Shown in pieces: positions 47,431-64,000 of a stretch of 64,000 nucleotides of DNA; positions within the stretch are counted from its first letter, which is position 1; each line of letters begins with the position of its first letter. This DNA is from Pedobacter sp. (GTDB lineage: Bacteria; Bacteroidota; Bacteroidia; Sphingobacteriales; Sphingobacteriaceae): positions 6,536 to 70,535 of the forward strand of contig JAZQRI010000083.1 of NCBI GenBank assembly GCA_045629455.1, read 5' to 3'. The notes under the pieces were generated by a model, which worked only from the letters and a program-made list of their open reading frames with translations, was not told the origin of the DNA and did no database searches. A program made the position numbers and the translations under genes.

Positions 47431-50400
47431 ATGAAATACGCACTATTCGGATATACCTATCAGCATTATGTCGCCTGCCTTTTGCTCGCCATGATGGATG
47501 TAGAACGTAAAATCCAAAAAATAAGTCTTGAAACAGACGTTAACCACAATTTTGACGACATTAACATATCCTGCGAACACAAAAATTATTGCCTCCAGTT
47601 AAAGGACATCGAAGGCTTAACAACTGATGAAATTACCATAGCAGATGGAAACATAAAAATCAGCGGCAAGAACCATAAGCTATCTTCAGAAGAAAACCTT
47701 TTGTTTTTTAAACAAATTAAACTACGGCCAGACTGCAGGATATTGGGATTACCTGCTCAGCTCAAGGATGGCGTTTATCTAATTTCATTAAACCGAGCGC
47801 AGGTAGAACAGCGTATCTCAAAGCTGTATTATCTAGACAAACATAGAAGACAACTGATCAATAGGTTTCTAAGTGAGCGACTCGACGAACGGAAATTAGA
47901 GATTGACCTGAGAAATATTCCCGCCATTGCGACATTCGATACAAGGTTGACCGACAAGAGTATCCGTGTCGCTAGAAAAATTCTCAATTTTGAACAGATC
48001 CTCCACATCGAAGGAAAACCAGGTGTTGGTAAAAGCCACCTTGTCACTCAGCTCGAGAACCAATTTCACCCAGTGGTACTCTACAGGTTCTGGATTTCCA
48101 ATCAGGACAAAAAATACGAAGAGCGGCTTCGATATACCGAATTTCAGGCGGATGTGATAAAAAAGCTATTTTTTGACCAAAAAGAACGATCAGTTAATGA
48201 TATCTTTTCGGCACTTGAAAAGGACAAGCCAACTTTAATCATCGATGGCCTGGATCATGTCGAAAACTACAGACCACAGGATCTGCGGTCCTATCTAGAT
48301 TTTATAACCCGTGCCTCAGAAAAAACGCGCGTTATCGTACTCAGCCGTCCGCTCCGCACCTCTACGGTTTGGAAAAAACAGGTGCTACGAAACTGGAGCG
48401 GTCCCCAAACTAGAAAAATATTAAAATCATTATACCATCTATCAAGCTATTTGGTTTCAGAACAGATTCACAAACTAACCGAGGGATATCCCATCCTGGT
48501 CAAATACATAGCTGAGCAGTATAAGAAAGAGGGGGTGGTGCCAAGCTTTTCCCAGCTTGACACTGTAAACTCTTACTATGACCAACTTTTCAGCAATGAA
48601 ACTGGCAAACGCGCACTGGCTTTATTCCTATGCACCAGAGGCTTCATTATGCATGAGGAAATTGATCTTTTCCTAGGTGAATACAGCGGAAGCCTGATCA
48701 AGGAATTCCTCGAAGACCGACCTTATTTATTCGAACGAAAACTAAATAGAATATCCCTTTATCATGATAGCCTAGTAACTTACCTTAGAAATAGCGCTCC
48801 GGAATACCAAGTCCTTCAAGGTAAGGTGAATTCAATTGTCAGCCAGTCTATGCTCAAAGGCGAGACCAGATTCCAGTCTAGGATTGGCCATTTCGATCTT
48901 GACAAGAGCTCTGTCTTAAGAATCGTTCGGTATTATTCAAGCATAGCCAACTTCAAAAAATTAATGACGGGCTTATTGGATTTTGAAGCTGTTCGGGAAT
49001 TCTATCCCCAATTGCTTGATTTGCTCGAAAATATCGGCGCATCGCATCTGACCATCAGCCAGTACTATGATCTGGCCCTTATCCTAAATCTTGTCGCTAG
49101 AGACCATTTTTCAACTTTTAATGGCTTCTATTATACCTTCACGAAGGCCATGATAAAATATGGTTATGCCCCAGAATATATAACTTCCAACGGCTATCTA
49201 TTTGCTATGATGATGTACATCAAAACGCAGGATGCCTCGTTGCTATTTAATGTCAAGGCAGACGGCCTTTATGACGTTTCCCGGTTTTATCAGGAACTTG
49301 AGACCGAAATTAAAGAAGAACGTGACTACTTTGAATATCAATCCAAACCCTTCAAAAGGTCTTTGATGGTCAAATCCTTGGCCGATACCCACAATTTAGA
49401 TTATGGAGAAAATCTTGAACATATTCTGGTAAATAACTGCCTCTTTCCGCAACCGGGGCAAAAGTTTGCCAGCCTGAGAGAATCGGTGTCCATTTACCTG
49501 AGCGGGCAGGAAGAACGGGCAGCGATGATACTTTCCATGGAACTCGAAAACAAAAACTGGGATCACTGGCGTTTTGGCTGGCGTCTGGAGAAAGTGAAAT
49601 CTACCCTTTTGGCTCTAGGTGACCAACCGCAGGACAACGATTACCTTAACCTCTCCCTTCGCGATTACCTGAAGCAAAATAGTGAAAAGGGCGCCTTCAA
49701 GCTCTGGCCTGAAATATTGGCCTACATTAGACTATCATTACATAGAAACAGAAAAATGGATCTAGAGTCCATATCGGAATTCTGGACAAAATATCATCAG
49801 CGCCATGACTATTCCCTACGCAGTATTTCTTATATTCTTCGCTCACTTGAGGACCTGGGAGAAATTGACTGGAAAGATTCCCTTGAGCTGATCATGGATA
49901 TCCAAACTAAATCAGAAAAGGGATACAGGGGTCTTACCGCGGAATACTTTGGCCTGCATGATCCAGCCTTCATGGTAAAGGCGATAAAGGAATTTGGTAC
50001 CGGTCAGTTAAAGGTATCCTGGTTCCAGCTCGAGCATGAATACCTGGAGGCGCTTCCAAAATATGTTTACGATATTGAAATGGGCGAACAAATACACTAT
50101 CACCGAACCAATATGCAAATGGATATATCGGTGATAGAAAACTTGTTATCGTCTTCTAAACTGAAATTCCTCAAAAGGGACCTATCCGACTATCGCTATA
50201 CCATCATGATCAAGGACGGAGATCCCAGGGAGGCCATGCTCAAACAACATAAAATTCGATACAAAATTTACGCACAGGAAAAATACAAACTAGAGAGAAG
50301 CCCAGAAGAACGCTTCGACGAAGGATGGTTCGAACCCAGCAATAGGCATCTAGTGCTTGAGAGAGGATTAACCCCATCTGAGGCAGCCCTATTGCTTGAG

Positions 50401-50664
50401 AGCGAAAGTACAGCCATAAAATATCCAGAACTATTTGAAGTTTTTCCTAAGCAACAGGTTAAAGAGCAGATCAAGGAAATCCTTAAAGCCGCTCTAACCG
50501 GCAAATCCAAACATGGGACTTATCGGCAAAGCCCCAGGCTTTTGCCCGGACACCTGATAAAGGTTATTGAAATTGCTGGCCTTACGTCCCAAATACCAAA
50601 ACTTTTGGAAAGCTATAGAACTTTTATGTCGTTGTCCATGTACCAACTTCCTCTAAAAAAATAA
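47431..50664 (+). CDS. NACHT-like STAND NTPase with N-terminal Cap4/DUF4297-like PD-(D/E)xK nuclease domain (Avs/bNACHT-like)
   Basis: N-terminus FGYTYQHYVACLLL...ISLETD...FDDINI...YCLQLKD (GxxYQ plus E/D...QxK pattern). Walker A GKPGVGKSH; Walker B LIIDGLDHVE; VIVLSRP (TSRP-like); about 650-aa helical C-terminus. Confidence 0.7.
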   Translation: MKYALFGYTYQHYVACLLLAMMDVERKIQKISLETDVNHNFDDINISCEHKNYCLQLKDIEGLTTDEITIADGNIKISGKNHKLSSEENLLFFKQIKLRPDCRILGLPAQLKDGVYLISLNRAQVEQRISKLYYLDKHRRQLINRFLSERLDERKLEIDLRNIPAIATFDTRLTDKSIRVARKILNFEQILHIEGKPGVGKSHLVTQLENQFHPVVLYRFWISNQDKKYEERLRYTEFQADVIKKLFFDQKERSVNDIFSALEKDKPTLIIDGLDHVENYRPQDLRSYLDFITRASEKTRVIVLSRPLRTSTVWKKQVLRNWSGPQTRKILKSLYHLSSYLVSEQIHKLTEGYPILVKYIAEQYKKEGVVPSFSQLDTVNSYYDQLFSNETGKRALALFLCTRGFIMHEEIDLFLGEYSGSLIKEFLEDRPYLFERKLNRISLYHDSLVTYLRNSAPEYQVLQGKVNSIVSQSMLKGETRFQSRIGHFDLDKSSVLRIVRYYSSIANFKKLMTGLLDFEAVREFYPQLLDLLENIGASHLTISQYYDLALILNLVARDHFSTFNGFYYTFTKAMIKYGYAPEYITSNGYLFAMMMYIKTQDASLLFNVKADGLYDVSRFYQELETEIKEERDYFEYQSKPFKRSLMVKSLADTHNLDYGENLEHILVNNCLFPQPGQKFASLRESVSIYLSGQEERAAMILSMELENKNWDHWRFGWRLEKVKSTLLALGDQPQDNDYLNLSLRDYLKQNSEKGAFKLWPEILAYIRLSLHRNRKMDLESISEFWTKYHQRHDYSLRSISYILRSLEDLGEIDWKDSLELIMDIQTKSEKGYRGLTAEYFGLHDPAFMVKAIKEFGTGQLKVSWFQLEHEYLEALPKYVYDIEMGEQIHYHRTNMQMDISVIENLLSSSKLKFLKRDLSDYRYTIMIKDGDPREAMLKQHKIRYKIYAQEKYKLERSPEERFDEGWFEPSNRHLVLERGLTPSEAALLLESESTAIKYPELFEVFPKQQVKEQIKEILKAALTGKSKHGTYRQSPRLLPGHLIKVIEIAGLTSQIPKLLESYRTFMSLSMYQLPLKK

Positions 50665-50769
50665 ATACCACAGCTATTTAAGCTGCATTGAACAACTGCA
50701 TTATTGATCATCCCTTTGCAGATAAACTGGTAAATTGCACATCTAATAACCAAATACACTACGCTCACT

Positions 50770-53700
50770 ATGAACTGGAACGCATTCAATACCCATAACG
50801 ATAGTTACGAAAATGCATTCGAAGCATTTTCCATACAACTTTTCGAACACTATCTCAGACGCAGCTATCCAGCAGGCTTGAGGGAGTTTTATGCAATTTC
50901 GGGCTCTGGGGGAGATGGCGGCGTGGAGGCATACGGCGTAGTGCCCACCGGGACGATAGGCCTGCAGGCGAAATGGTTCACCACAGCTCTTAGTGCCAAT
51001 CAGATCAAAAACATCAAGGAGTCGATATTAACTGCCAAAAAAATCCGTCCGGAACTAACTGAATATATCATCACTCTTCCCAAAAGGGTGAATTCAAAAA
51101 AAGGTGTTAAGGGGAAAAAGGTGGGAAGCAGCGAACAAGACAGGTTGCAGGAAATGGAAAATGTGGTTCTACAACAGCACCCCACTCTTAAGATTACCTG
51201 GTGGTTTGAGAACCTACTGTTAGAACAGTTGGAATATCCAGATAGTAGATCCATAGAATCCTACTGGTTCGGACGAAATTTTCTTACCCTTGATTTCCTA
51301 AGAAGCAAATTCAGAGACCAAAGGGAACACCAATGGCTCAAAACCAGGTATGCCCCGGATCTAAATGCTGAAGGAGAGATCGCTGCGCACTATGACGAAC
51401 TTTGCCTAGGTCAACATTTCAAATCAGAACTCTCGGATAAGCTACAATCTTTAGGCAATAAACTTGCTTCGGCCTCCAGTCTTATTGATGCCTACATCAA
51501 AGGACAGGATCGTACACCATCGGATGAAGAAACTAACCTGAGCAATCAGCTTAAATGTATAATAATCTGCATTATAGAGTATCAGAACAACATCGAGCTA
51601 CTAGCCACTGCCCTTCAAAAGGGATCGGTGCCCGAACTCCTGGTCCTTCCCGAATACGATCTATGGAAACCAAAAATGGCCGTAGAACGCATAAGGCCCA
51701 CCAATATCCAGATTCCTGTTGCAAAATCATTGGCAAGGGCTTTGGAAAAAATCCATAAGATACATTTGCCACAATACCTCTGCGCATTGAGAGATGAGAT
51801 GAGCAGAAAAATTAAAATATTTTTTGGGTCAGCGGGAACAGGTAAAACCCAAGGACTGGCGCACTGCACCTCCAAACATCTAGACGGAAATCTACCAGCG
51901 ATAATCATTCCGGCCAAAGGAACTCCCTGCGGAAATTGGACGCAAATTCTATCTAGCCAGCTCGAGCTGCCCGAAAGATCTGCTCAAGAGATCTTCACCG
52001 CTTTGGAATCGCTCGCGGTATCTGAACTTAGAAAGGAAGCTGAGCTTAATCGATCGAAAAGAAGCCATTCTGCAACAGTATTAATATCCGTTGATGGGCT
52101 CGAAGAAGATATAAGACATTGGGAAAAATGGTATGATAGGATTAACGATACCCTAGGTATCACCAACACCTTTCCACGAATCAGGTTTATGTTCTCTGCC
52201 AGGGAATATTTCCGCGACAACGACAAAATACCAGAAAGAGTACCATTCGAACAAGTTCAACTGCCGAGCGAGGGAGATATCTCTATAAATGATGCGGCGG
52301 AGATATATTTTTCTCCAATGCATTTCAACATAAGCAACGTAAACTCCGATGTGATGAAGCGTATTGAAAGCCTGTATGCTTTAAAGCTATTCTGCGAGCG
52401 CTACCGCGGAGCAGATCTTCTCTTTACCGAAGATGTACACACCGACCTCCGCTCACTTTTATCGGATAAAATCGCCGCGCTGGAAATTGAGTTTAAAAAT
52501 GGAAGCGGCCGCCGATTCTCCTCCACCTCTGCCCCAGTCGCCGATACTCTCCTCGCAATATCTCAACAATTTTTTACCGAAATAAGCCTTGAACACTCGA
52601 AACTTTTAAGCTTGCTAAACGAGCAAATCCGTTCGCTTTCCTATACGGAATTAGAAGTAATGTTAGAATTTTTATCCGAACGTGGGATATTGACCGCAGG
52701 TATGCACGAGACCATAGGGATAATCAAAAAGAGGGAGATATTTTACTACGTATCCTACCAATCCATCATCGAGCATGTCATTTCCGAAGATATCTTTATC
52801 AAGCTCGTAAATGGCGACATTCAGTCCATTCCCCCAATTGCCCTGAGCGGTATCGCAGCCCCCTTAAGGCTTGGCCATGTTGATATCGAGGCGGCATTTC
52901 CAAACGAGACAATGACCGAGGCGATTTTAAAGCGGGTATTTTTGAGGACGGGTAAACTGGTCGGTCAGGACGGATATTTGGCGACGGGTATGGGCCAGGA
53001 AGAAATTATAGCCATGCAAATGGCGGTGCTAGCTGTGGCGGACAATCTGCATGGCCCGAAATATGAAAATATGGTAAAAAATTGGCTGGCAATGGGGCAC
53101 TGGCACCAACAGCAAGTTTTTATCAGGGTCATTAGGCCGGCCAGCAAAATCGGAGCTTATTTTAATCCGCTATGGCTGCACCAGCATCTTCTGTCTATTC
53201 CAACAGTCTACGAAAGGGACATATTTTTATGGGCGGATAGATCCGTTAGAGCACATGACAACTATGATGGATTTGAAGCGGCAATATATCCTTTCGATGG
53301 TTATGACACCTCTCTCTACCCATTTGACCATTTCGACCAGGAACCATTAATATATGCCTGGTGCCTATCCTCGCCCAGCCGAAACATTCGAAAAGAACTG
53401 CGCTCCTCACTGCTCAACTGGGCAAACCTCAACCTGACCGATTGGATAAATTTACTGGACCTAATGAAGGACCAACAAGATAGCCAGATATTGGAGGACC
53501 TTGCTTCGGTATCTTTGGGTTTATCCTACACCTTAAAAGAAACCAGTGATGTACTGCTGCTATCTAATTGGGTCCTGGCCAATATTTTCGCAAATCCTGA
53601 TACTTATCTGAGCAGTAGGATACGCGAGGGATTCAGAGGAATTATAGACAGAGCGACCGAGCTAGGTGCACTTTCAAAGGAGGATGGAGCTCTAGCTAGG

Positions 53701-55056
53701 CCCAAAAAGCGGAAGGCACAATTACTGCCATTGGCAAAAGATGCTTTGGAAAAAAACAGCGAACAGTTCTTTCCAGTTGTTTCTGATCTTGCATGGTACG
53801 TCCTGGAAGACAGCTACGAGAACTTCTTAGATGAGAGCTATCATGCGGAGGAGGAAGATCAACTAAGCGATCAAATAAAATTCCTAATGCAATATTCTGC
53901 TGTCTACAAACTGGATAGTTTAACTCCTGCGCTATGGGCTCAAGCGGCCGTAATTGCCCAGATCAGAAATAAATTCGGCTATCTCGAAAAAAGCGGAAAT
54001 GTTGTTTTTCTGCCTTCTCATGGGGAAAAAGGCCTGATTATGTACTTTGCGGAGAAATATATCTGGCAGGCGGTCTACTCTGTACAGGGCTACTTATCGG
54101 AACAGCTGCCACTTATCGAACAGGAACGCTATATTAAGTCCTACCGTGAAATCGTAAATGTTTCAAATCCTGCTGAGGGGCTGATGCACAATGGAGATCT
54201 GTTATCTTCCCTCGACGATATTCCAGGGCCTGGATGGCTTATTCCTGAAAACCTAGTAAATTCGGTAACCATTGAACCAAAATTAATCAAAAAGGGTATA
54301 GATAAGGAGATTGATGAGCCAGATGGGCTTAACCTACATTTATGGTTAGAATACAGTGATAAATCAGCGAAGATATGGAGACAGCTGTTTAGCCAAACTA
54401 CTTTGGAGGACAAAAACCAGGTGGTCTATGGCAGGGTCACGGCAAATGCGGCTCTAATGCCGCCAGATGCGTTCCAACGATTTCTCAACATTTTACGTAC
54501 TTCTCCCGAGGACCTACACTTTTTAAGCAGCCTAGACACCCTGCTTGCCACACCGTCGGGCAGCTTTTATCAGAACCCAATCGACATAGTGGATGGAAAG
54601 GATATTGGCGAAGATAAACCAGATACATTACTAGAGATCGATGGGGAGGAATCCAACCTATACCACTCCATCGTTAAGGTCGTGCAATCAGAGAACAATA
54701 ATGAAAAGACCTACCATCTTCCCTCCAGAATCGTACGAGAACTTCTGGGAATAAAGCAACTAAAAGGGAAAAGACTAAAGGATTATATGGGCGAGACGAT
54801 TGGCTTTGTCACTGAAATGGGCAGACCGGGCGAAGAGAATTCTCAGCGATTGACCTTCGTCACGGCAGACATCCTTGACGTGGGATTAGCGGACACCGGC
54901 TATCAACTATTATGGTTCGTGGAGGTCTTTAAAAGAACTACACTCACTACAGAAAAGGATGGCCTATTTCTACGCAGGACACGGAAGTATTTAGTCTGGA
55001 TGGAAGATAATTTATACAAACAGCATAAGTTCTGGGACGGAGAGTCATCCAATTAA
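50770..55056 (+). CDS. Giant (1428 aa) P-loop STAND-like NTPase with N-terminal Mrr-type restriction-endonuclease-like domain
   Basis: FEAFSIQLFE...SGSGGDGGVEAYG...IGLQAKWF (Mrr_cat-like D...E.K pattern). Walker A FFGSAGTGKTQ; Walker B VLISVDGLEED; about 950-aa C-terminal region with no motif I recognise. Confidence 0.65.
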   Translation: MNWNAFNTHNDSYENAFEAFSIQLFEHYLRRSYPAGLREFYAISGSGGDGGVEAYGVVPTGTIGLQAKWFTTALSANQIKNIKESILTAKKIRPELTEYIITLPKRVNSKKGVKGKKVGSSEQDRLQEMENVVLQQHPTLKITWWFENLLLEQLEYPDSRSIESYWFGRNFLTLDFLRSKFRDQREHQWLKTRYAPDLNAEGEIAAHYDELCLGQHFKSELSDKLQSLGNKLASASSLIDAYIKGQDRTPSDEETNLSNQLKCIIICIIEYQNNIELLATALQKGSVPELLVLPEYDLWKPKMAVERIRPTNIQIPVAKSLARALEKIHKIHLPQYLCALRDEMSRKIKIFFGSAGTGKTQGLAHCTSKHLDGNLPAIIIPAKGTPCGNWTQILSSQLELPERSAQEIFTALESLAVSELRKEAELNRSKRSHSATVLISVDGLEEDIRHWEKWYDRINDTLGITNTFPRIRFMFSAREYFRDNDKIPERVPFEQVQLPSEGDISINDAAEIYFSPMHFNISNVNSDVMKRIESLYALKLFCERYRGADLLFTEDVHTDLRSLLSDKIAALEIEFKNGSGRRFSSTSAPVADTLLAISQQFFTEISLEHSKLLSLLNEQIRSLSYTELEVMLEFLSERGILTAGMHETIGIIKKREIFYYVSYQSIIEHVISEDIFIKLVNGDIQSIPPIALSGIAAPLRLGHVDIEAAFPNETMTEAILKRVFLRTGKLVGQDGYLATGMGQEEIIAMQMAVLAVADNLHGPKYENMVKNWLAMGHWHQQQVFIRVIRPASKIGAYFNPLWLHQHLLSIPTVYERDIFLWADRSVRAHDNYDGFEAAIYPFDGYDTSLYPFDHFDQEPLIYAWCLSSPSRNIRKELRSSLLNWANLNLTDWINLLDLMKDQQDSQILEDLASVSLGLSYTLKETSDVLLLSNWVLANIFANPDTYLSSRIREGFRGIIDRATELGALSKEDGALARPKKRKAQLLPLAKDALEKNSEQFFPVVSDLAWYVLEDSYENFLDESYHAEEEDQLSDQIKFLMQYSAVYKLDSLTPALWAQAAVIAQIRNKFGYLEKSGNVVFLPSHGEKGLIMYFAEKYIWQAVYSVQGYLSEQLPLIEQERYIKSYREIVNVSNPAEGLMHNGDLLSSLDDIPGPGWLIPENLVNSVTIEPKLIKKGIDKEIDEPDGLNLHLWLEYSDKSAKIWRQLFSQTTLEDKNQVVYGRVTANAALMPPDAFQRFLNILRTSPEDLHFLSSLDTLLATPSGSFYQNPIDIVDGKDIGEDKPDTLLEIDGEESNLYHSIVKVVQSENNNEKTYHLPSRIVRELLGIKQLKGKRLKDYMGETIGFVTEMGRPGEENSQRLTFVTADILDVGLADTGYQLLWFVEVFKRTTLTTEKDGLFLRRTRKYLVWMEDNLYKQHKFWDGESSN

Positions 55057-55141
55057 TTCGGGCGTTTCTACGTATACGGTTTTCTATTGAAATTAGCTGT
55101 ATATTTTGCATTTATGTTATGGATTATATTTTATACTGGTG

Positions 55142-56602
55142 TTATTCCTGTTTTAAAAAATAATCCTGCATGATGTCATTGAATTTTTTGGATTTAGCCA
55201 ACCCAGAAGTGTGCATAATCTTCTTAGGATCAAAGAAGTCAACTTTATATTTTTTTGTAGCTTCCATTGTTTCGATTAACGTTCTCGAATCGTCACTAAA
55301 TCCGCCCGTCGACCAATATTGAAAATGGATTTCTTTATCATTGAGCGAAGGTTGGTCCAATATCCATTTTCTGATCACAGCAATTTTTTCATTTCTCCAG
55401 ATTTCTATATCAGCCTTTATAATCGGGTAATTATAACCTTTACATTCTGCAACTACCACTTTATTTCCATAGACTGCATAAACATCCATCTCTCTTTGAA
55501 GATGTTCATGGCTGATCAACTTGCCAATATCCAGTGTTCCACATCCCATCTTGGAATGATAATAGCCAACCGCCATTTCAAAAAGGTCCCCACGCAAATT
55601 GTTTGTCTTTCCGCTAACAAGCGATTTAAGCTTTTTTATCAGGTCAAGAAACTGCTCTGGATTTTTTTTCAAGATGGCTCCCGCGTTAACTACTGAATTG
55701 ACCAGTGCTTTCATTAATGCCAAATACTCATCTCCGAACAATTGGTTCACAAATCCGACGATTATCCCATTGCTCTTTAGATAACTGAGCGCCTCAGGAT
55801 CCACGGAATCTACTATCAAGAAAGGCAGAAATTGTGGCGTGTTTTTTTGGGCCTTCAGTATATCCACTTTCTTAATAAAAAACTCTACCTGATCAGGAGT
55901 AATGTTATTATTAACCAAAATATCCGCCACCACATACCCGGGGGCAATTTTTTCATCTTTCCAGCGCGTAAGTGTACTCACATAAGACGGCGCTACGAAT
56001 GCAAAGCAAAAATTTCCGAAAGGAGAGTAAAAACTTGACGCATCATAACTAGTTAAGGCCATTTTCCGTGCCCAATCATTAAACTGGATCAACAATGTAT
56101 CCTTTACCAATTGAATACCCATACTAAGCCTCTGATTTGAAATAACCTGGCTTCTGCTTTCATTCAATGAAATATTTTCATCTATGTAACGATTTAAAAG
56201 CTCAAGAGATTTCAACTTCTCGATTGCCGAGTCAAACGTTAGGTGCCCTTTTACATTGCTGATAGGATTTACAGAATAAGCAGCTAGCTGCTCCGAGGGG
56301 AGAGACCCTCGATGAAACTCAAGCGCATTTAGGATATAATTGTATTGTTTGGCGTCAGATTTAATCGCCGCTCTTAAACCTTCCGAGAATTCAACCGAAT
56401 TGTAATCATCTTTTATGTAAAAAAGCGTCTGGCGGTTTGCGAAATAACCTGTCAACCGAAAGATGTTCTCATCCTTGGTTCTGGAAATTTGCTGACGTAG
56501 GGCGTCGTCACTTTGCATCCACCCGGCCAGTCGGAGTTCTTTGATGATCTGACCGGTTAAAATGGGGCCCTTAGATCTAATGATTTTTTTTATCGATGTC
56601 AC
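55142..56602 (-). CDS. Hypothetical protein: N-terminal wHTH-like segment plus C-terminal PD-(D/E)xK nuclease-fold
   Basis: C-terminus LRGDLFEMAVGYYH...REMDVYAV...VVVAECKGY (FE...D...E.K restriction-endonuclease-like pattern). GTG start at 56602. Convergent with the 1428-aa gene. Confidence 0.5.
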   Translation of the reverse strand: MTSIKKIIRSKGPILTGQIIKELRLAGWMQSDDALRQQISRTKDENIFRLTGYFANRQTLFYIKDDYNSVEFSEGLRAAIKSDAKQYNYILNALEFHRGSLPSEQLAAYSVNPISNVKGHLTFDSAIEKLKSLELLNRYIDENISLNESRSQVISNQRLSMGIQLVKDTLLIQFNDWARKMALTSYDASSFYSPFGNFCFAFVAPSYVSTLTRWKDEKIAPGYVVADILVNNNITPDQVEFFIKKVDILKAQKNTPQFLPFLIVDSVDPEALSYLKSNGIIVGFVNQLFGDEYLALMKALVNSVVNAGAILKKNPEQFLDLIKKLKSLVSGKTNNLRGDLFEMAVGYYHSKMGCGTLDIGKLISHEHLQREMDVYAVYGNKVVVAECKGYNYPIIKADIEIWRNEKIAVIRKWILDQPSLNDKEIHFQYWSTGGFSDDSRTLIETMEATKKYKVDFFDPKKIMHTSGLAKSKKFNDIMQDYFLKQE

Positions 56603-56898
56603 ACCACACTATTTATATTAAATTACTAATTAGTACTGTCGTGGTTTTTTTGAAAAACTGCGTTCGCTATTACCGCAAGACTGTTTTTAGTGATATTTAC
56701 GTGCGTTGACAGCATATTATCTAACCCGCACATTCTGCAAATTACAAAAAACAGGTCTTAAATCGATGATTCTTTCTCGAGCGTTAAATAAAATTAGTAT
56801 CGTCAGAAGGAGCCGCATTGACTATACTAATTAAACCTAGTTACTATAACCCAGTTAGAGTTAACAAAACAATTGATTATCTTGGCTAAAACTTTAAA

Positions 56899-57468
56899 AT
56901 GGACTTATCTTGTATCAATGATATTCTTCACGTGCAGATTCCATCCTTGCTACGCCAGGAAATGATCTCTGACTGGTACCGATCAGAAGCAGGAAAGATT
57001 GCAAGGGTCCTGACCGTGACAGACAAAAAATATTCATTAGCACTCAATACACCGTATAGCGACAAGCTGAAATACTTTGATCTGAATATATCAAATTGCG
57101 TCCATCAGTATTTTAACGAATTCAGCGATAGATTCTGGACCTCGCAGAATACCGATCACAAAAAGTTTTTAGTAGACAAGTATCTAAACCGAGAAGTGGT
57201 CCAGAAAATCCAGGATACCGCTCATGTTATCATTAGCAAAAATCTTCAATGGGAAAACCACAATAAGCCAGAACAACTGAAAAATAGAGAAGTAATTTTT
57301 ATTCTTCAATCCTTAAAGTTCAATCTGATATGGCTATACCTGGAGATAAAAAAATTAGTTGAGCATGCCGTTAATGATGGATATCAGACTCTCGAAACAT
57401 TGCTTGCAGAGCATTTTCACGAATACGACTGCTCATCGCCACATATAAAGGAAAACCAAGAATTTTAA
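56899..57468 (+). CDS. Hypothetical 189-aa protein, first gene of the pAgo operon
   Basis: ATG start; ends 14 nt before the next gene. No TM segment or motif recognised. Confidence 0.5.
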   Translation: MDLSCINDILHVQIPSLLRQEMISDWYRSEAGKIARVLTVTDKKYSLALNTPYSDKLKYFDLNISNCVHQYFNEFSDRFWTSQNTDHKKFLVDKYLNREVVQKIQDTAHVIISKNLQWENHNKPEQLKNREVIFILQSLKFNLIWLYLEIKKLVEHAVNDGYQTLETLLAEHFHEYDCSSPHIKENQEF

Positions 57469-57482
57469 CCTAATTTTAATGC

Positions 57483-58703
57483 ATGGTTAAAATATTTCGG
57501 CTCTTAGTAATTATCCTAGCAATAATTACTGTATTTATAACGATCATCTTCTTAGTTATTGTATGGAAGAACTTCACCTTCATAGGTTCAGGCGCTGTAT
57601 CTTGGGAGCACACCTCGCAAGTCTCAGACTTTTTCGGAGGGGTCATCGGCACATTTTTATCCGCCATGGGTTTTATCCTAATATATTTGAGTTTCAACTC
57701 GCAGACAGAGAGCCAAAATGACCAGAAAAATCAGTTTCTTCAATCCCAGATCGAAACTCGCTTCATCGAACTGATCAAGATCCATAAGGAAACCGTTGCC
57801 AATCTCACCTATGACAGAGAGATAACCTTACAGGGGCAAAAAGTGATTGATTTTATTGTGGGGCAGTTTGAATCATCTTTTGTTGAAGTAGCGGCATTTT
57901 TCACCAGCCTTGAGTCTGAACAATGCTACAAACCAACAGTATTACAAACGATCAACGGAATTTTATCCCTGCGAACAATTAGCCCTATTCTTTTAGCCCA
58001 AATAGATATTGCTTATTCCATTGTATTTTTTGGAATGGCCAAAGATGATATTGAATCCCTGAGGCACTTACTTAAAAGGCATTACAATGATGATCTGATC
58101 GATGAAATACTTGAGTTTATCAAGCTAAAATCACTCGGCAAAGAAAACCTGTCTAAATGGAAGATCATTTTAGAAAGCGGCCTCACTAGGGAAAATATCA
58201 ACTCGACCATAGCGGAATATCGCCAAAACGGCACCATTGCAAGAAGGCAATTCGATGCAGCGTATCAGGACGCCTTTGAAACGCTACTGAAAAAGGAGTC
58301 ATCGGATAAATACTATGGGGGACATCAATATAAGTTAGGCCATTATTTCAGGCACCTATTTCTGACCGTGAAATACATCAACGACCAATCAATCATTGGT
58401 TATAAGGATAAATATAACTACATAAAAATACTAAGGGCCCAAATTTCTACAATTGAACAGTATCTGATATTCTATAATTCACTTTCATTTATGGGTAGGG
58501 CCTGGGAACTGGAGCATGTCAACACGACCAGTGATGAAGCTATCAAAAATAAATGGCTTTTTACAAAATACAATTTCATTAAAAATACACCTAATCTGTC
58601 TCAACTTGGCGTAATAAAACTGGACGAATTCTATCCAGACCTGCAGTTCGAGTTCACCGGACAACCTGAAAAAAGAGCCGAACTAGGCCAGTTATTCAAA
58701 TAA
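57483..58703 (+). CDS. Two-TM membrane protein resembling the putative phage abortive infection (AbiC-like) family; candidate pAgo effector
   Basis: Hydrophobic helices at aa 5-28 and about 48-71 (SDFFGGVIGTFLSAMGFILIYLSF), a Q-rich linker, FIELIKIHKE, and later GHYFRHLFLTVKYI. It lies 27 nt upstream of the pAgo gene. Confidence 0.6.
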   Translation: MVKIFRLLVIILAIITVFITIIFLVIVWKNFTFIGSGAVSWEHTSQVSDFFGGVIGTFLSAMGFILIYLSFNSQTESQNDQKNQFLQSQIETRFIELIKIHKETVANLTYDREITLQGQKVIDFIVGQFESSFVEVAAFFTSLESEQCYKPTVLQTINGILSLRTISPILLAQIDIAYSIVFFGMAKDDIESLRHLLKRHYNDDLIDEILEFIKLKSLGKENLSKWKIILESGLTRENINSTIAEYRQNGTIARRQFDAAYQDAFETLLKKESSDKYYGGHQYKLGHYFRHLFLTVKYINDQSIIGYKDKYNYIKILRAQISTIEQYLIFYNSLSFMGRAWELEHVNTTSDEAIKNKWLFTKYNFIKNTPNLSQLGVIKLDEFYPDLQFEFTGQPEKRAELGQLFK

Positions 58704-58730
58704 AATTTCAAATTAACACCTCAAATACCA

Positions 58731-60755
58731 ATGGATTTTTCAACCAATATCATTCCCTTTCGATTACCTATACAACTACAGCCATTCTACTTCTCCTTGG
58801 ACGAAAGTAGTCAAGCTCACAGATTACATCGAAATGTAATCTCGGATAAGATAGCAACTGTGCTACAGTTAGATCCGGAAATAGAATTTGTCTACACCAC
58901 CTTTGACATCGAATGCGTTGGCTACACTTTGATTGAGCTAGACCTCGCTCAAGAAAAACCTTCATTTGCCAAGAGATATTATAATTACTTAATCCAAAAA
59001 TATTTCCAGGATCTGGGCATTCTGGTGAAAAAAAACTTTGTACGGGACGTTCAAATTTGGATACTTCAACAAGCACCCTCTGAATATACCACTTTTGACC
59101 GTTTTACAATTCGTACTCAATTTAATAAGATCACTACCAGCGGCGAATTGCTGATTGCATTTGATGGAGTCTCGAAGGTATTGAAGAAAACAGTAAATGA
59201 GGCCACGGAAATCCAACCAGAAAATCTGCGGTATGTGCTTCAAGAGAATAAACTACTCCGGTATCATGATCCGGAGGATTATCAGCTTGTGGATTACAAT
59301 CTATCTTATCCGGTTATGGGTCTGAATATCTATAGAGATTTAAATCTTCCCCTGCCCGTTTTGGATAAAACCAACAAATACAAAAAGTTTATCCCCAAGA
59401 TTTCCAGTTTCGTTAAAAAATATCTAGATCAGGACGGCTTTCGGTCATTAGTAAACCTTTCACAAAAAACTTTTTATAAGCTTCCAGATACATTAATCGG
59501 AACCGTTAAGCAAGAAAGCAACAACTTGCTCTTTGGAAACAATCATGTAGATTCCGACGCGCGACAGGGAATCAAAAAAGGCCCATATAAAAAAACACCC
59601 TACACAAACGTCCATTTCTTTTTTATATATCACAAGGATTCAACTCTTTCAGCAAAGACGCTCCATACCTATTACAAAGAGGGTATCGAATTTTTTAAAG
59701 GCCTCGAAAGTATCGCTAAAGTTAGATACCATACAGAAAAAAATTTCAGTATCGTTTTTGATAATTTAGCCGATCCAATTGCTGAAATCCAAGAGGCTCT
59801 TGATTCGAAGGACTGGAAGCCTGACGTGGAATATTTCGCCATTTACATTAGCCCATTTGACAAACATGAACCCGATAGGCAAAAGCGCCAGCTTTATTTT
59901 AGCCTGAAAAAACTGTTGCTTGAAAAAAAGATCCATTCTCAGGTCATTGTCGAGAATAAAATGCTGGAAAAGGGTGCAGAGTATAAATACAGCATGATCA
60001 ATATTGCCGTAGCTGCACTGGCTAAACTGGGAGGTGTCCCCTGGAGAATTCAATCTTCACTCAAGAACGAACTGGTCGTTGGAGTTGGCGCTTTCAAAAG
60101 TCCGGATACCGGCCTGCATTATGTCGGAAGCGCATTCTCCTTCCAGAATAATGGGGAATTCAACGAATTCGATTGCTTTCTGAAAACGGACACGGATATT
60201 TTAGCGGGAGCAATCCAGGAGGCAATTATCAAGTTCACATCTGTAAACAAGAATCCACAGCGCCTCATAATCCATTTTTACAAGGACATGAGCTATAAAG
60301 AAATCAAACCAATATTGACAAAACTTTATAATCTAGGCCTAGCTATTCCGGTTTTTATCATAACCATCAATAAGACCGAATCTAGTGACATTATCGCTTG
60401 GGACAATGACTGGAATGGGCTGATGCCTACCAGTGGAACCTATATTAGGGTTGGAAAAAATGAATATTTATTATTCAACAATACTCGATATGGTCAAGGT
60501 CATAAAGCGTCGGACGGTTTTCCTTTTCCAGTTAAAATGAAGGTCAGCTGCACGGACGCTGAGCAATTAAGTCCACTTATCGTAAGGGAATTGATTGACC
60601 AAGTCTATCAATTCAGCAAGATGTATTGGAAATCAGTCAAGCAGCAACACCTACCTGTGACGATAAAATATCCAGAAATGGTAGCTGAGATCTTCCCGCA
60701 TCTAGGGGTACTTACCTTGCCAGAGTTTGGGAAGGACAAACTTTGGTTTCTCTAG
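58731..60755 (+). CDS. Prokaryotic Argonaute (MID-PIWI), catalytically inactive, shortened N-lobe (long-B-like)
   Basis: MID pocket pattern Y389/K393/Q404/K432 (LYFSLKK..IHSQ..INIAVAALAKLGGVPW). PIWI strands VVGVGAF, RLIIHFYKD and PVTIKYPEMVAE lack acidic residues at the DEDX positions. Confidence 0.8.
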   Translation: MDFSTNIIPFRLPIQLQPFYFSLDESSQAHRLHRNVISDKIATVLQLDPEIEFVYTTFDIECVGYTLIELDLAQEKPSFAKRYYNYLIQKYFQDLGILVKKNFVRDVQIWILQQAPSEYTTFDRFTIRTQFNKITTSGELLIAFDGVSKVLKKTVNEATEIQPENLRYVLQENKLLRYHDPEDYQLVDYNLSYPVMGLNIYRDLNLPLPVLDKTNKYKKFIPKISSFVKKYLDQDGFRSLVNLSQKTFYKLPDTLIGTVKQESNNLLFGNNHVDSDARQGIKKGPYKKTPYTNVHFFFIYHKDSTLSAKTLHTYYKEGIEFFKGLESIAKVRYHTEKNFSIVFDNLADPIAEIQEALDSKDWKPDVEYFAIYISPFDKHEPDRQKRQLYFSLKKLLLEKKIHSQVIVENKMLEKGAEYKYSMINIAVAALAKLGGVPWRIQSSLKNELVVGVGAFKSPDTGLHYVGSAFSFQNNGEFNEFDCFLKTDTDILAGAIQEAIIKFTSVNKNPQRLIIHFYKDMSYKEIKPILTKLYNLGLAIPVFIITINKTESSDIIAWDNDWNGLMPTSGTYIRVGKNEYLLFNNTRYGQGHKASDGFPFPVKMKVSCTDAEQLSPLIVRELIDQVYQFSKMYWKSVKQQHLPVTIKYPEMVAEIFPHLGVLTLPEFGKDKLWFL

Positions 60756-60800
60756 GGAGAGATAATTCTTTCCGTTACTTTTAAAGCAATTTTTCGAATA

Positions 60801-60917
60801 TTAACAGATTGGAGTAGCCATTGTATCCAAAAAATCATAATTTTTCACAGCTTTTTCAAGTTGCTTAAGCTGGATGAATTCCGCTCTGCTAACTTTTTGT
60901 CCATTGTAATAACACAT
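60801..60917 (-). pseudogene. 38-codon remnant resembling the N-terminus of an SOS-response-associated peptidase (SRAP/YedK-like)
   Basis: MCYYNGQKVSRAEFIQLKQLEKAVKNYDFLDTMATPIC*: Met-Cys start as in SRAP (catalytic Cys2) with a Bacteroidota-style MCYY opening. It ends about 45 nt from the pAgo stop, whereas full-length SRAPs are about 200 aa or more. Confidence 0.4.
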
Positions 60918-60921
60918 AATC

Positions 60922-61170
60922 TTATCTCCTTTTAGCACGGATATGCTCAGCAATCAATTTCCCAATTTGTTCGGCTTCGATCTGTCTTCCCTATGGTATG
61001 GAAGTCCAGAATTTCTGGTCACGCAGGCCAATGCCTATCGCAATTAACAGCGGCTTTTTTCAGCCTTTGAAATCAACATGAAACACCCTGTTGGACCCGA
61101 CCTCATGTTCTGCGACAGTAATCTGTTGTCCTTCCAGTTCTAGCTCAAATGGTGGTTCAAGTTCCCTCAT
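60922..61170 (-). pseudogene. Stop-interrupted paralogue of the 99-aa ORF at 8969-9268
   Basis: MRELEPPFELELEGQQITVAEHEV...FHVDFKG*KKPLLIAIGIGLRDQKFWTSIP*GRQIEAEQIGKLIAEHI. This compares with MEPFNIKLPVSGQTATLTILPAEE...KDWTLVPEEE...RSIGAEIQS. Two in-frame stops. Confidence 0.5.
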
Positions 61171-61923
61171 TATTAAAATTAAAGAAAAATCTAAGAATCA
61201 AAAAGGGTCAAACACCTAAAGATTAGGCACAAAGAAAAACGGGGAATAATCATGATGACGATTCCCCGTTCTAAATTAACGCTCTCATACATAAAGACGC
61301 TGGTAGAGCAGATTTATTGCAAACGCAACTTAATTTTTTTCTCGATTTCTTTCCGCTGAGTCGAGCCGTCCTTTTTAGCATCCTTGACGGCGGCAGATTT
61401 CACGGTCAATTTATCTGCTTCGTATTGATCTCATGTGGTTGGTTGGAAACCGAATTCCTTCAACTTTGCTTCCTCTTGGTATAATCTTAATTTCTAGGTG
61501 AATGATGCCATCAAAACAACATTAAATCAGGATGGTTTAAAAAATCTGCCGCCTAAAAGCACGTGGGAAAGATGGCCTTTTTAAATGAGAACGCTTTATA
61601 ACCTCTATCTTGACCTACCGCTGGAGATGTTTTGCAGATTATTATCTTCTGCGGCTTTAATGTTAGGGTGCTCAACATCCTAGACTGATGGCCTTACATA
61701 CTGGTCTTGTTTTAACCCAGCTTCCCTTAGAATATTTCGGGAATGTTGGTACTTAGAATAATGTTACCATCCTTAAGGTCCGGTAATATCTTGTTGACAA
61801 TCGCGTCTCTAATTATAGTTATAGCATTTGAATGGGCGAGCACTGTCAAAAGGAACCGAAAAGGACAGTGTAATAAATGAATCCCCAGCTATGGTGATTT
61901 CAAAATGATATTAATGATTTTCC

Positions 61924-61962
61924 ATAAATAGTCAAGTTTAATAGAAAAACTTGACTATTTAT
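61924..61962. repeat. Perfect 16-bp inverted repeat (ataaatagtcaagttt / aaacttgactatttat), 7-nt loop
   Basis: Read directly. It is immediately followed by a second hairpin, agagtagaagat-tctaa-gtcttccactct (61963-61991). Confidence 0.85.
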
Positions 61963-62411
61963 AGAGTAGAAGATTCTAAGTCTTCCACTCTATCTTACCA
62001 TTTATTGGATACAATAGCCGTTCTCGAATTCCAGAAGCAACCCAATATTTAATTTATAACCAAAGAATTCTGCTCCGTTACATATTTGTTACTGTTCTTA
62101 ATAAAAAAACAGACGAGCTCATGAACTGACATTGTTCCTGTTAGAATTATTGATTTGCCTATTCCTATACCAATCTGTAAAAGTTCGAACTCCGCTTTGA
62201 TATCCTTTACCTTTTGGAATTATGCCTCGTATGCCCGTTTAACTCTGGCGATACCGACTTCCCTCCCGTAATCAGGGAATGTAACCATCTAATACCATCC
62301 TACCTTTGAGACCGAGTGATACCCATCGGGTGCATCTAAATCTACAAGCATGGAGAGGATGGGACAACCTTGTAGCATTTTTTTTTCTCCACTACCTCCT
62401 CCTTAGCTTCT

Positions 62412-62444
62412 CCTTACCTTTCCTATACCTTTGCCTTACCTTTT
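62412..62444 (+). repeat. Three 11-nt phased TACCTTT / CCTTACC units upstream of the 62554 gene
   Basis: ccttacctttc-ctatacctttg-ccttacctttt. The middle unit TACCTTTG fits the Bacteroidota -7 promoter consensus TAnnTTTG. Same core motif as at 9334-9399. Confidence 0.6.
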
Positions 62445-62553
62445 GGTAGCCGAAAGCTAGGGCGGAGCCTTGCAAAAAGTGCCGCATCTACAAACTTGAT
62501 TTATCGCTGTATTTTGTTTAAGTTTAATCTAGTAAACACTAACGCATCTCGAA

Positions 62554-63198
62554 ATGGCAACAATTAAAAAAGGAATATTGGGTCCGGTTACGGGCTCGAT
62601 AGGAAAAGTGATCGGCTATGAACGACTAGGTACGCCCTGCATCAGAATTAAAGCGGAACCGAAAGAACAAAACTTTACGTCCAAACAAAGGGCGCACCAG
62701 TTGCGCGTCAGGCTGGCCAACAGTTTCATCAACCCTTCAAAGGCCTTCATCAACATTGGTTTTTCTTTAAGCACCACTGGCGGCCAGACCGCGCACAACG
62801 TAGCTATGGCGCATGCCATAAGAAATGGCACCAAAGGTGAGTTCCCGGAACTAGAACTGGATTTTGAAAACCTGCTGGTTTCGGATGGGGAACTTCCAGG
62901 AGCGGTGAATCCGCAGGTAGAACTGTCAATCAATTCGAATCTGAAATTCTCCTGGGATTACGACAATAGCCTGGAGTTTGCCCTAAGAAAGGATCAGGTC
63001 ATGCTCCTCGCCTATTCGCCGGAAACAAACAGATCCTTCTACACCATTGGTGGCGCAAAAAGATCTGCGGGTCAGGATATCTTAGAATTGTACACCGAGC
63101 TTCAGCCCGAAGTATTTGAGACCTATATCGCTTTCATTTCAGAAGACCGGAAATTGATATCCAGAAGTACCTACACAGGAAAGGTTATCATAAGCTAA
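62554..63198 (+). CDS. Hypothetical protein, DUF6266-like
   Basis: The N-terminus MATIKKGILGPVTGSIGKVIGYERLG resembles my recollection of Bacteroidota DUF6266 proteins. No functional motif. Confidence 0.45.
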   Translation: MATIKKGILGPVTGSIGKVIGYERLGTPCIRIKAEPKEQNFTSKQRAHQLRVRLANSFINPSKAFINIGFSLSTTGGQTAHNVAMAHAIRNGTKGEFPELELDFENLLVSDGELPGAVNPQVELSINSNLKFSWDYDNSLEFALRKDQVMLLAYSPETNRSFYTIGGAKRSAGQDILELYTELQPEVFETYIAFISEDRKLISRSTYTGKVIIS

Positions 63199-63216
63199 CT
63201 TTTTATACTAAGCTAC

Positions 63217-64000
63217 TTAAGAACCTTCATTCCCGATCTTATCACTTACCCGGAAATAATCGAAATCTACGTACCCTCCGGGGTTCTTAGTGGCATAGTT
63301 AAACAGACCAAAGCGGTAACCCATAAAGTGAGGGAGCGTGTAAGACATCTGCAATGCAGAGCCTATACGTTTCCAATTCTTACCGTCCAGGCTGTAATAG
63401 AAGTAGCCTTTATCTGTACGGTTCTTGAAATCGCAATCTGCCTTCAGATAAATGGTTGTTTGTGTAACCGGAATGCTGGCCACCTCTTCCGGAGTACCGG
63501 TAGACGCATTTACCATGACGATGGAACGGCTGCCCCCTTCTGCTTTTACCCCTACCCATCCGTAATTCTTTTGCAGGAGAAGAAGTCCGGCATGGTCGCC
63601 ATCTTTCATTTTCGAAATGTCCAGGGAGGTAACAGCAGAACTTTCCGGACCAAAGGTCCGTTGGGTGATTGTATTGCGGGCCATCAGGATGGAGGTATCC
63701 ACGCGGCTTGTGCTCAGCCGGAGAAAACCGGGGCGCTGTGTGACAGACCAGGAGCGGTTGTCCGGGTTATGGTTCCACTGCCAGACCAGCGGCAAAGCCG
63801 GCTCGTTCTTTTTCCGCTCAAATTCATCTGAGGCCACAATCCCGGGAATGATGCCTTTACTTGCCGGGAGATCTAAAGATTCCGGCACCTGACCACCTGT
63901 TCCGAGCACCGGCCATCCGTCTTCCCATTTTACCGGGACGAGGTACGGAATGCGGCCCACTGCACCAAAATCACGGAAGAGGTACGCATACCAGTCACCC
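63217..64000 (-). CDS. Glycoside hydrolase family 43 protein, C-terminal beta-sandwich part; 5' end outside the window
   Basis: The reading frame stays open to nt 64000 (..GDWYAYLFRDFGAVGRIPYLVPVKWEDGWPVLG..). WQWNHNPDNRSWSVTQRPGFLRL is typical of the GH43 beta-xylosidase-type C-terminal concanavalin-like domain. Confidence 0.75.
   Translation of the reverse strand, partial: GDWYAYLFRDFGAVGRIPYLVPVKWEDGWPVLGTGGQVPESLDLPASKGIIPGIVASDEFERKKNEPALPLVWQWNHNPDNRSWSVTQRPGFLRLSTSRVDTSILMARNTITQRTFGPESSAVTSLDISKMKDGDHAGLLLLQKNYGWVGVKAEGGSRSIVMVNASTGTPEEVASIPVTQTTIYLKADCDFKNRTDKGYFYYSLDGKNWKRIGSALQMSYTLPHFMGYRFGLFNYATKNPGGYVDFDYFRVSDKIGNEGS

Follow-up and report, generated by a model that had tools for sequence, protein, structure and literature searches.

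A three-gene Argonaute cassette in Pedobacter

The DNA analysed here, which we call the window, is a 64,000-nucleotide (nt) stretch from Pedobacter sp. (GenBank assembly GCA_045629455.1, contig JAZQRI010000083.1, positions 6,536 to 70,535 of the forward strand), and our subject is a membrane protein gene that lies in it directly upstream of a gene for a prokaryotic Argonaute (pAgo). An original prediction, made from the DNA letters without database searches, had read the membrane protein as a member of the AbiC-like abortive infection (Abi) family that forms a two-gene unit with a catalytically dead pAgo. We found that the adjacency of effector and pAgo holds, with a 27-nt gap between the effector stop and the pAgo start, while the two-gene extent does not: the unit is one of three genes and includes an upstream open reading frame (ORF), ORF189, which ends 14 nt before the effector start. 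All three genes lie on the same strand:

56899 to 57468, plus strand: ORF189, first gene of the cassette, 189 amino acids (aa), no transmembrane (TM) segment, candidate adaptor
57483 to 58703, plus strand: putAbiC (AbiC/AbiP-group) membrane protein, 406 aa, ATG start, candidate effector
58731 to 60755, plus strand: inactive long-B-like pAgo, 674 aa, recognised by Piwi and PADLOC matches, candidate sensor

The candidate effector is an AbiC/P-group membrane protein

The ORF at 57483-58703 and every peptide string that the original prediction had quoted from it were recovered where it had placed them: F5-W28 (FRLLVIILAIITVFITIIFLVIVW), D49-F71 (DFFGGVIGTFLSAMGFILIYLSF), a Gln-rich stretch at residues 72-90, FIELIKIHKE at residues 94-103, and GHYFRHLFLTVKYI at residues 286-299. 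Kyte-Doolittle hydropathy in 19-residue windows gives two hydrophobic segments, and past residue 186 no segment reaches the hydropathy threshold. An AlphaFold2 model built with 79 homologues as input (mean predicted local distance difference test score (pLDDT) 90.6, predicted TM-score (pTM) 0.80) shows a helix at residues 2-30, a short loop, a long helix at 41-106, and then an all-helical domain, with TM helix 2 (TM2) running on into a stalk helix as far as residue 106. Hydropathy and model thus both support the two N-terminal TM helices that had been proposed. The main features of the protein are:

57495 to 57566, plus strand: TM helix 1 (TM1), residues 5-28, hydropathy peak 3.49, poorly conserved
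57624 to 57698, plus strand: TM2, residues 48-72, hydropathy peak 1.94, within the 41-106 helix of the model, carrying the motif TGQxGDFxGGxxGT
58308 to 58517, plus strand: conserved core of the soluble domain, residues 276-345, KYYGGHQxxLGHYFRHL ... LRAQLSxxEQ ... NSxSxxGxxWE

The N-terminal flank of the protein carries K3 and R6, and the loop between the two helices is net neutral. Because of this charge distribution, the positive-inside rule predicts an N-in/C-in topology that would place the large all-helical domain of about 300 aa in the cytoplasm. That domain is modelled confidently, and fold searches with it returned no solved structure and no hint of a binding mode. A Foldseek search of the Protein Data Bank (PDB) with the full-length model gave no match at E <= 0.001, which does not in itself prove a novel fold, and a sequence search of solved structures with the effector gave none below E = 0.03.

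The protein matches the Pfam family PF16872 (putAbiC) over residues 281-342 with 55 bits (curated cut-off 22; E = 1.2e-14). It also matches the PADLOC profiles for AbiC (1.1e-7; residues 219-335 on profile positions 117-234 of 306) and AbiP (1.6e-6; residues 285-337), each over part of its length, and a PHROG family without assigned function, phrog_8999 (1.5e-19). In a large protein database we found 314 homologues, most of them from Bacteroidota; PF16872 is present in nearly all of the 120 homologues among the matches listed. N-terminal TM helices followed by a helical soluble domain, a trait of the AbiC/P group, are present as well. Assignment to the AbiC/AbiP (PF16872) family is secure, and the AbiC-like call of the original prediction is upheld by the Pfam score and by both PADLOC profiles. 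As the PADLOC matches are weak and partial, we place the 406-aa protein in a distant Bacteroidota branch of AbiC/AbiP.

AbiC and AbiP, known from lactococci since the 1990s and early 2000s, are classed together as "AbiC/P" in a 2026 review, and neither a mechanism nor a fold has yet been assigned to them (PMC13064643). The number of TM helices is two in AbiC and one in AbiP. The latter is a membrane-anchored, sequence-independent nucleic-acid binder that prefers RNA over single-stranded DNA (ssDNA); its trigger is a phage major tail protein, and no toxicity has been reported when it is expressed alone (PMC13064643).

We scored conservation over the 79 homologues as mean top-residue frequency and entropy. 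The values for TM1 are 0.34 and 2.74, compared with 0.68 and 1.25 for TM2 and 0.73 and 1.13 for the Pfam core. The glycine-rich TGQxGDFxGGxxGT motif in TM2 is near-invariant across the family: G53 is invariant, and G48, D49, G52, G56 and T57 are at least 90% conserved. In the soluble domain, the conserved core is enriched in His, Arg, Lys, Tyr, Gln and Asn. TM1 is probably a plain anchor. Since TM2 is as conserved as the core and TM1 is not, TM2 appears to do more than anchor the protein. Its conservation suggests specific helix packing in the membrane, as in oligomerisation or a channel, and favours a membrane-active output without proving one.

The downstream Argonaute has lost catalytic residues and keeps a guide pocket

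The 674-aa pAgo matches Pfam Piwi over residues 384-654 (56.5 bits) and PADLOC profile PDLC02385 over its full length (815 bits). With a profile of 31 relatives, its closest solved relatives are AfPiwi (1e-29), EcAgo of BPAN (8e-24) and RsAgo (3e-21), matched over the L2-MID-PIWI portion; for the first ~265 residues, sequence comparison gave no solved chain. We aligned the protein with TtAgo, taking the TtAgo sequence from plasmid pTT27 (locus L158). In this hhalign alignment (E = 4.7e-4, probability 33%, motifs in register), TtAgo D478 falls on G453 and D546 on Y517, meaning that at least two catalytic residues are lost; the remaining two tetrad positions are unaligned or of low confidence. 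These replacements bear out the description of the neighbouring pAgo as dead. The pocket for the 5' end of the guide is of the YK type found in MID domains, with Y389, K393, Q404 and K432 invariant in the 31 relatives. Long-B pAgos are characterised by a PIWI domain without the DEDX tetrad and by a YK-type MID motif (Ryazansky et al. 2018, PMC6299218). Judged by its sequence, the downstream pAgo is non-cutting with its guide pocket kept, and its catalytic loss, YK pocket and closest solved relatives mark it as long-B-like.

Among more distant pAgo relatives we observed other arrangements. Two relatives at 37% identity have a YhcG/DUF1016 PD-(D/E)XK gene directly upstream, with stop and start overlapping (L106:6859-10061 and L107:6862-10064; G311 and G387), a pAgo pair led by the nuclease, in contrast to the gene order published for BPAN. 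At L113:6751-11475 (G381), the gene before a pAgo relative is a Schlafen AlbA_2/HATPase_c_4/HTH gene, and an overlapping SIR2_2 gene comes after the pAgo, which is the BPAS arrangement.

The three genes are conserved together between unrelated flanks

To place the cassette in the wider putAbiC family, we surveyed the best 80 species-representative genome loci and 8 metagenome loci, with flanks of up to 6 kb on each side, for Argonautes by tblastn and by hidden Markov model (HMM) searches of six-frame ORFs. In 79 of the 80 genome loci there is no Argonaute within 6 kb, in agreement with the expectation that the family usually stands alone. The exception is Pedobacter sp. B4-66 (L001), which carries the full trio in the same order, with ORF189, putAbiC and pAgo at 49, 63 and 70% identity to those of the window and no homology beyond the three genes. 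The same cassette is found in a soil-type metagenome contig (L118), where the flanks are again unrelated to those of the window. The two copies in L118 and L001 share 97% DNA identity, which is limited to the stretch that begins 74 nt before the ORF189 homologue; even between near-identical copies, the left context thus differs. Recurrent linkage to pAgo genes in other genomes, which the original prediction had named as a test, is therefore seen in L001 and L118, and is confined to one narrow sub-clade of the family.

We extended the linkage analysis to a collection of 15 billion proteins by matching contig sizes and accessions. The effector and pAgo clusters of the lineage have six members each, with six identical contig sizes and consecutive NCBI accessions. 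Three further effector/pAgo pairs, each a pair of single-member clusters, are on equal-sized contigs of 6307, 9102 and 8301 nt, with effector/pAgo identities to the window of 68/76, 51/57 and 46/51%, respectively. From the equal contig sizes we infer that effector and pAgo are adjacent in these three lineages as well, down to 46/51% identity. The two proteins have diverged in step, with pairwise identities correlated at r = 0.99 over five pairs, and a quick maximum-likelihood tree unites effectors P0001-P0006 in one clade (Shimodaira-Hasegawa-like approximate likelihood-ratio test (SH-aLRT) 99).

Searches beyond these sets gave little: a plasmid search returned only four distant matches, and a pAgo relative on a viral contig (L159) has no putAbiC in the flanks examined. 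A full-text literature search, from which most subscription-journal papers were out of reach, found no paper describing a pairing of putAbiC or AbiC with an Argonaute.

Two further observations concern putAbiC genes outside the cassette. Copies from the genus of the window contain in-frame stops (one TGA in L129 (G577), one TGA in L131 (G691), and one TGA and two TAA in L136 (G711)), which point to repeated decay of putAbiC in close relatives. At L156:5266-9275 and L157:7983-12215, putAbiC homologues at 47-49% identity lie immediately 3' of type III res and type I hsdR genes, and may be Abi genes inside restriction-modification operons.

ORF189 is found with the other two genes

ORF189 has no Pfam, PADLOC, PHROG or NCBIfam match of its own. 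Most of the 19 relatives have a length of 323-347 aa, with similarity over the first ~185 residues, and several of the 19 match PF20322 (DUF6617). ORF189 is thus related to the N-terminal half of DUF6617-like proteins of ~335 aa. A search with PF20322 found no match in the window's own genome, nor in the controls, and is hence uninformative. Homologues of ORF189 at 49% identity lie directly upstream of the effector in both L001 and L118, and an ORF189 HMM found none in the other ~155 loci (the TtAgo locus L158 was left out); among the loci scanned with this HMM, ORF189-like genes are restricted to trio loci. In addition, an ORF189 relative at 57% identity (P0241) and an effector homologue (P0003) are both on a contig of 4283 nt. 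We consider it possible that ORF189 acts as an adaptor in the cassette.

In a giant protein of 2851 aa (P0244), ten separate stretches match ORF189 residues 49-90, a short motif that is also used as a repeat unit.

The cassette lies in a defence island

Two candidate regulatory elements flank the trio:

56603 to 56898, plus strand: non-coding region upstream of the cassette, 296 nt, likely promoter region, the sole long intergenic gap before the trio
60756 to 60773, plus strand: weak terminator-like hairpin directly 3' of the pAgo stop, from a consensus scan

Sigma-70-like matches in 56603-56898 are no commoner than in shuffled sequence. In the Pedobacter-type relatives, homology between the two contexts starts 74 nt upstream of the ORF189 homologue. 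The hairpin is compatible with an operon end without being evidence for one: the region has 3 terminator-like sites, compared with 5.7 expected in shuffles. Rfam searches gave no match in 55000-64000, and tRNA searches gave none in 40000-64000.

The cassette is part of a defence island whose three other genes lie at 47431-56602: one for a STAND/AAA-type NTPase of 1077 aa, one for an Avs2-like protein of 1428 aa (PADLOC, 3e-51), and a divergent gene of 486 aa with a weak CARF_PDDEXK-type match. On the other side of the cassette, the 1.8 kb that follow the pAgo (60756-62553) contain no ORF of at least 60 aa on either strand, no Rfam match and no tRNA, and probably represent decayed genes at the right edge of the island. 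The G+C content is 0.37-0.40 in the cassette and 0.43-0.50 further out.

Cassette DNA (56899-60755) is also present in five sequencing runs (X1-X5) from three studies, with word shares of 0.26-0.61; none of the runs listed as containing it is an RNA run. Two of the five carry a species label whose other data are poly-A RNA-seq, a hint that the bacterium either lives in association with a host or contaminated the samples of that organism. Among RNA data with this label, four runs gave zero reads on the cassette, which is no test either way.

A model for Argonaute-controlled abortive infection

Taken together, we lean towards reading the trio as a pAgo cassette that moves horizontally, whose abortive-infection output would come from an AbiC/P-type membrane protein and in which ORF189 may be an adaptor. 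In this model, the non-cutting pAgo would load small guides through its 5'-phosphate pocket and recognise nucleic acid of an invading plasmid or phage. Target-bound pAgo would then switch on the putAbiC protein, either directly or through the ORF189 protein. Activation could travel along the long stalk helix to the glycine-rich TM2, and the cell would arrest or die ahead of the spread of the invader. The toxic act itself might be permeabilisation of the membrane, in keeping with the pore or membrane-disruption module that the original prediction had proposed, or binding of nucleic acids.

Several of our own results, and some published ones, weigh against this model. The putAbiC family lacks an Argonaute at all but one of the 80 genome loci and all but one of the 8 metagenome loci, and relatives of the effector at 47-49% identity directly follow type III res and type I hsdR genes. 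The pAgo-linked effectors have no extra domain compared with stand-alone ones, and fused forms of 712-2030 aa were not found among the homologues, which is weak evidence. In the quick tree, one effector with inferred pAgo linkage (P0012) groups weakly with a non-linked one (P0013), so that repeated gain or loss of the linkage is possible. On the pAgo side, relatives at 31-38% identity have quite different neighbours: YhcG nuclease, Res-like and DEAD/MZB helicases, Fic, HsdS and, downstream, SIR2_2. Neither AbiC nor AbiP has a known membrane-damaging activity, and for AbiP, nucleic-acid binding without toxicity of its own has been reported (PMC13064643). Finally, EabAgaM, the membrane protein of the EaBPAM system of Elizabethkingia anophelis, failed to co-purify with its pAgo, and no complex was detected (PMC10620215); even known systems are therefore without demonstrated contact.

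The strongest competing explanation, which we consider unlikely though not greatly so, is that the locus holds two independent systems, namely a putAbiC gene that acts alone as an Abi system, in the manner of Lactococcus, and next to it a pAgo that works by itself or with some other partner, the trio being co-inherited through tight linkage. The predominance of stand-alone putAbiC loci (79 of 80) fits such an explanation, as does the absence of a pAgo-specific extra domain from the effector; close relatives beside type I and type III restriction-modification genes indicate a habit of lodging near defence genes, and the window region is itself a defence island with Avs2-like and STAND genes. 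Co-divergence is also to be expected of any tightly linked genes. Yet the order and spacing of the trio are kept to about 46-51% identity, with unrelated flanks wherever these can be compared (the window against L001 and L118), whereas defence-island neighbours normally reshuffle far faster. Moreover, the inactive pAgo would be left without an output, there being no other effector gene in the cassette, and ORF189 is seen in the trio only. We regard it as distinctly improbable that putAbiC is an accessory nucleic-acid-binding membrane platform, which would tether the pAgo where phage or conjugative DNA enters or capture RNA or ssDNA for guide loading, with defence exerted through pAgo binding or an unlinked factor. 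Here the composition of the conserved core, rich in His, Arg, Lys, Tyr, Gln and Asn, is suggestive; both the TM region and the binding domain of AbiP are needed (PMC13064643), and long-B pAgos of the RsAgo type can work by binding alone (background in PMC10620215). A mere tether, however, has no need of a TM2 so strongly conserved across the family, abortive infection is the defining phenotype of that family, and where published systems link a TM protein to a long-B or pseudo-short pAgo, that protein is either needed for cell death or is the toxin.

It is extremely improbable that the cassette is a plain member of BPAM, the published pairing of a long-B pAgo with the og_100 TM effector bAgaM, even though an inactive long-B-type pAgo joined to a TM protein in Bacteroidota follows a common logic. 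In BPAM the pAgo gene lies upstream of the effector gene, while here the effector comes first; the TM region of EabAgaM is its C-terminal 106 aa, while the TM helices of the window protein are N-terminal, within the first 72 residues. These reversals of gene order and TM position led us to reject an identity with BPAM. In addition, og_100 is annotated without a known domain whereas the window protein matches PF16872, and we saw no putAbiC motifs in the EabAgaM supplement sequence when comparing by eye.

A broader proposal, which goes beyond the three-gene cassette and which we think rather unlikely, is that AbiC/P proteins are general signal-gated membrane effectors. Under it, a nucleic-acid or protein signal would be sensed at a cytoplasmic domain of novel fold and the conserved glycine-rich TM2 would form a lethal channel, the usual trigger having been swapped in this lineage for a programmable Argonaute, with the DUF6617-like ORF189 as a bridge. 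If true, this would add a third independently evolved system coupling a pAgo to a membrane effector, and would give a first handle on how AbiC and AbiP kill.

Comparison with known Argonaute and Abi systems

Inactive Argonautes are known to signal to nucleases, to Sir2 and TIR NADases, and to membrane proteins of two kinds. Coupling of an Argonaute to an AbiC/P-type protein, if confirmed, would bring a new effector family into the pAgo repertoire. Guide and target would then offer a programmable trigger for a family that is naturally set off by structural proteins of phages, and its mode of action would become directly testable.

Among published systems, EaBPAM lowers viability ~1000-fold, an effect that requires both its long-B pAgo and full-length bAgaM, a TM protein (Song et al. 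2023, PMC10620215). BPAM and the window cassette are alike in the genetic coupling of an inactive long-B-type pAgo to a transmembrane protein, and they differ in that the window cassette has an additional upstream gene, ORF189, and an effector of the PF16872 family in place of the unannotated og_100. In the SiAgo-Aga1-Aga2 system of Sulfolobus islandicus, a pAgo-Aga1 complex contacts the membrane-associated toxin Aga2, which acts through a basic pocket that binds anionic phospholipids, and the outcome is abortive infection (Zeng et al., bioRxiv 10.1101/2021.12.09.471704). This system resembles the window trio in architecture only, each combining an inactive pAgo, a small partner and a membrane protein; it is archaeal with a short or pseudo-short pAgo, whereas the window cassette is from Bacteroidota and has a long-B-like pAgo. 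EcAgo of BPAN and RsAgo share with the window pAgo an inactive PIWI domain and a YK-type MID pocket, while the partner in BPAN is a PD-(D/E)XK nuclease encoded downstream and the window pAgo is paired with a membrane protein encoded upstream. AbiC and AbiP of Lactococcus, in turn, are single-gene systems with phage-protein triggers, whereas the window gene sits in a cassette with an Argonaute and a small protein. If the cassette works as we propose, one and the same output module could be an Abi gene in its own right or an effector subordinate to another component, which bears on how bacterial defences are assembled from modules.

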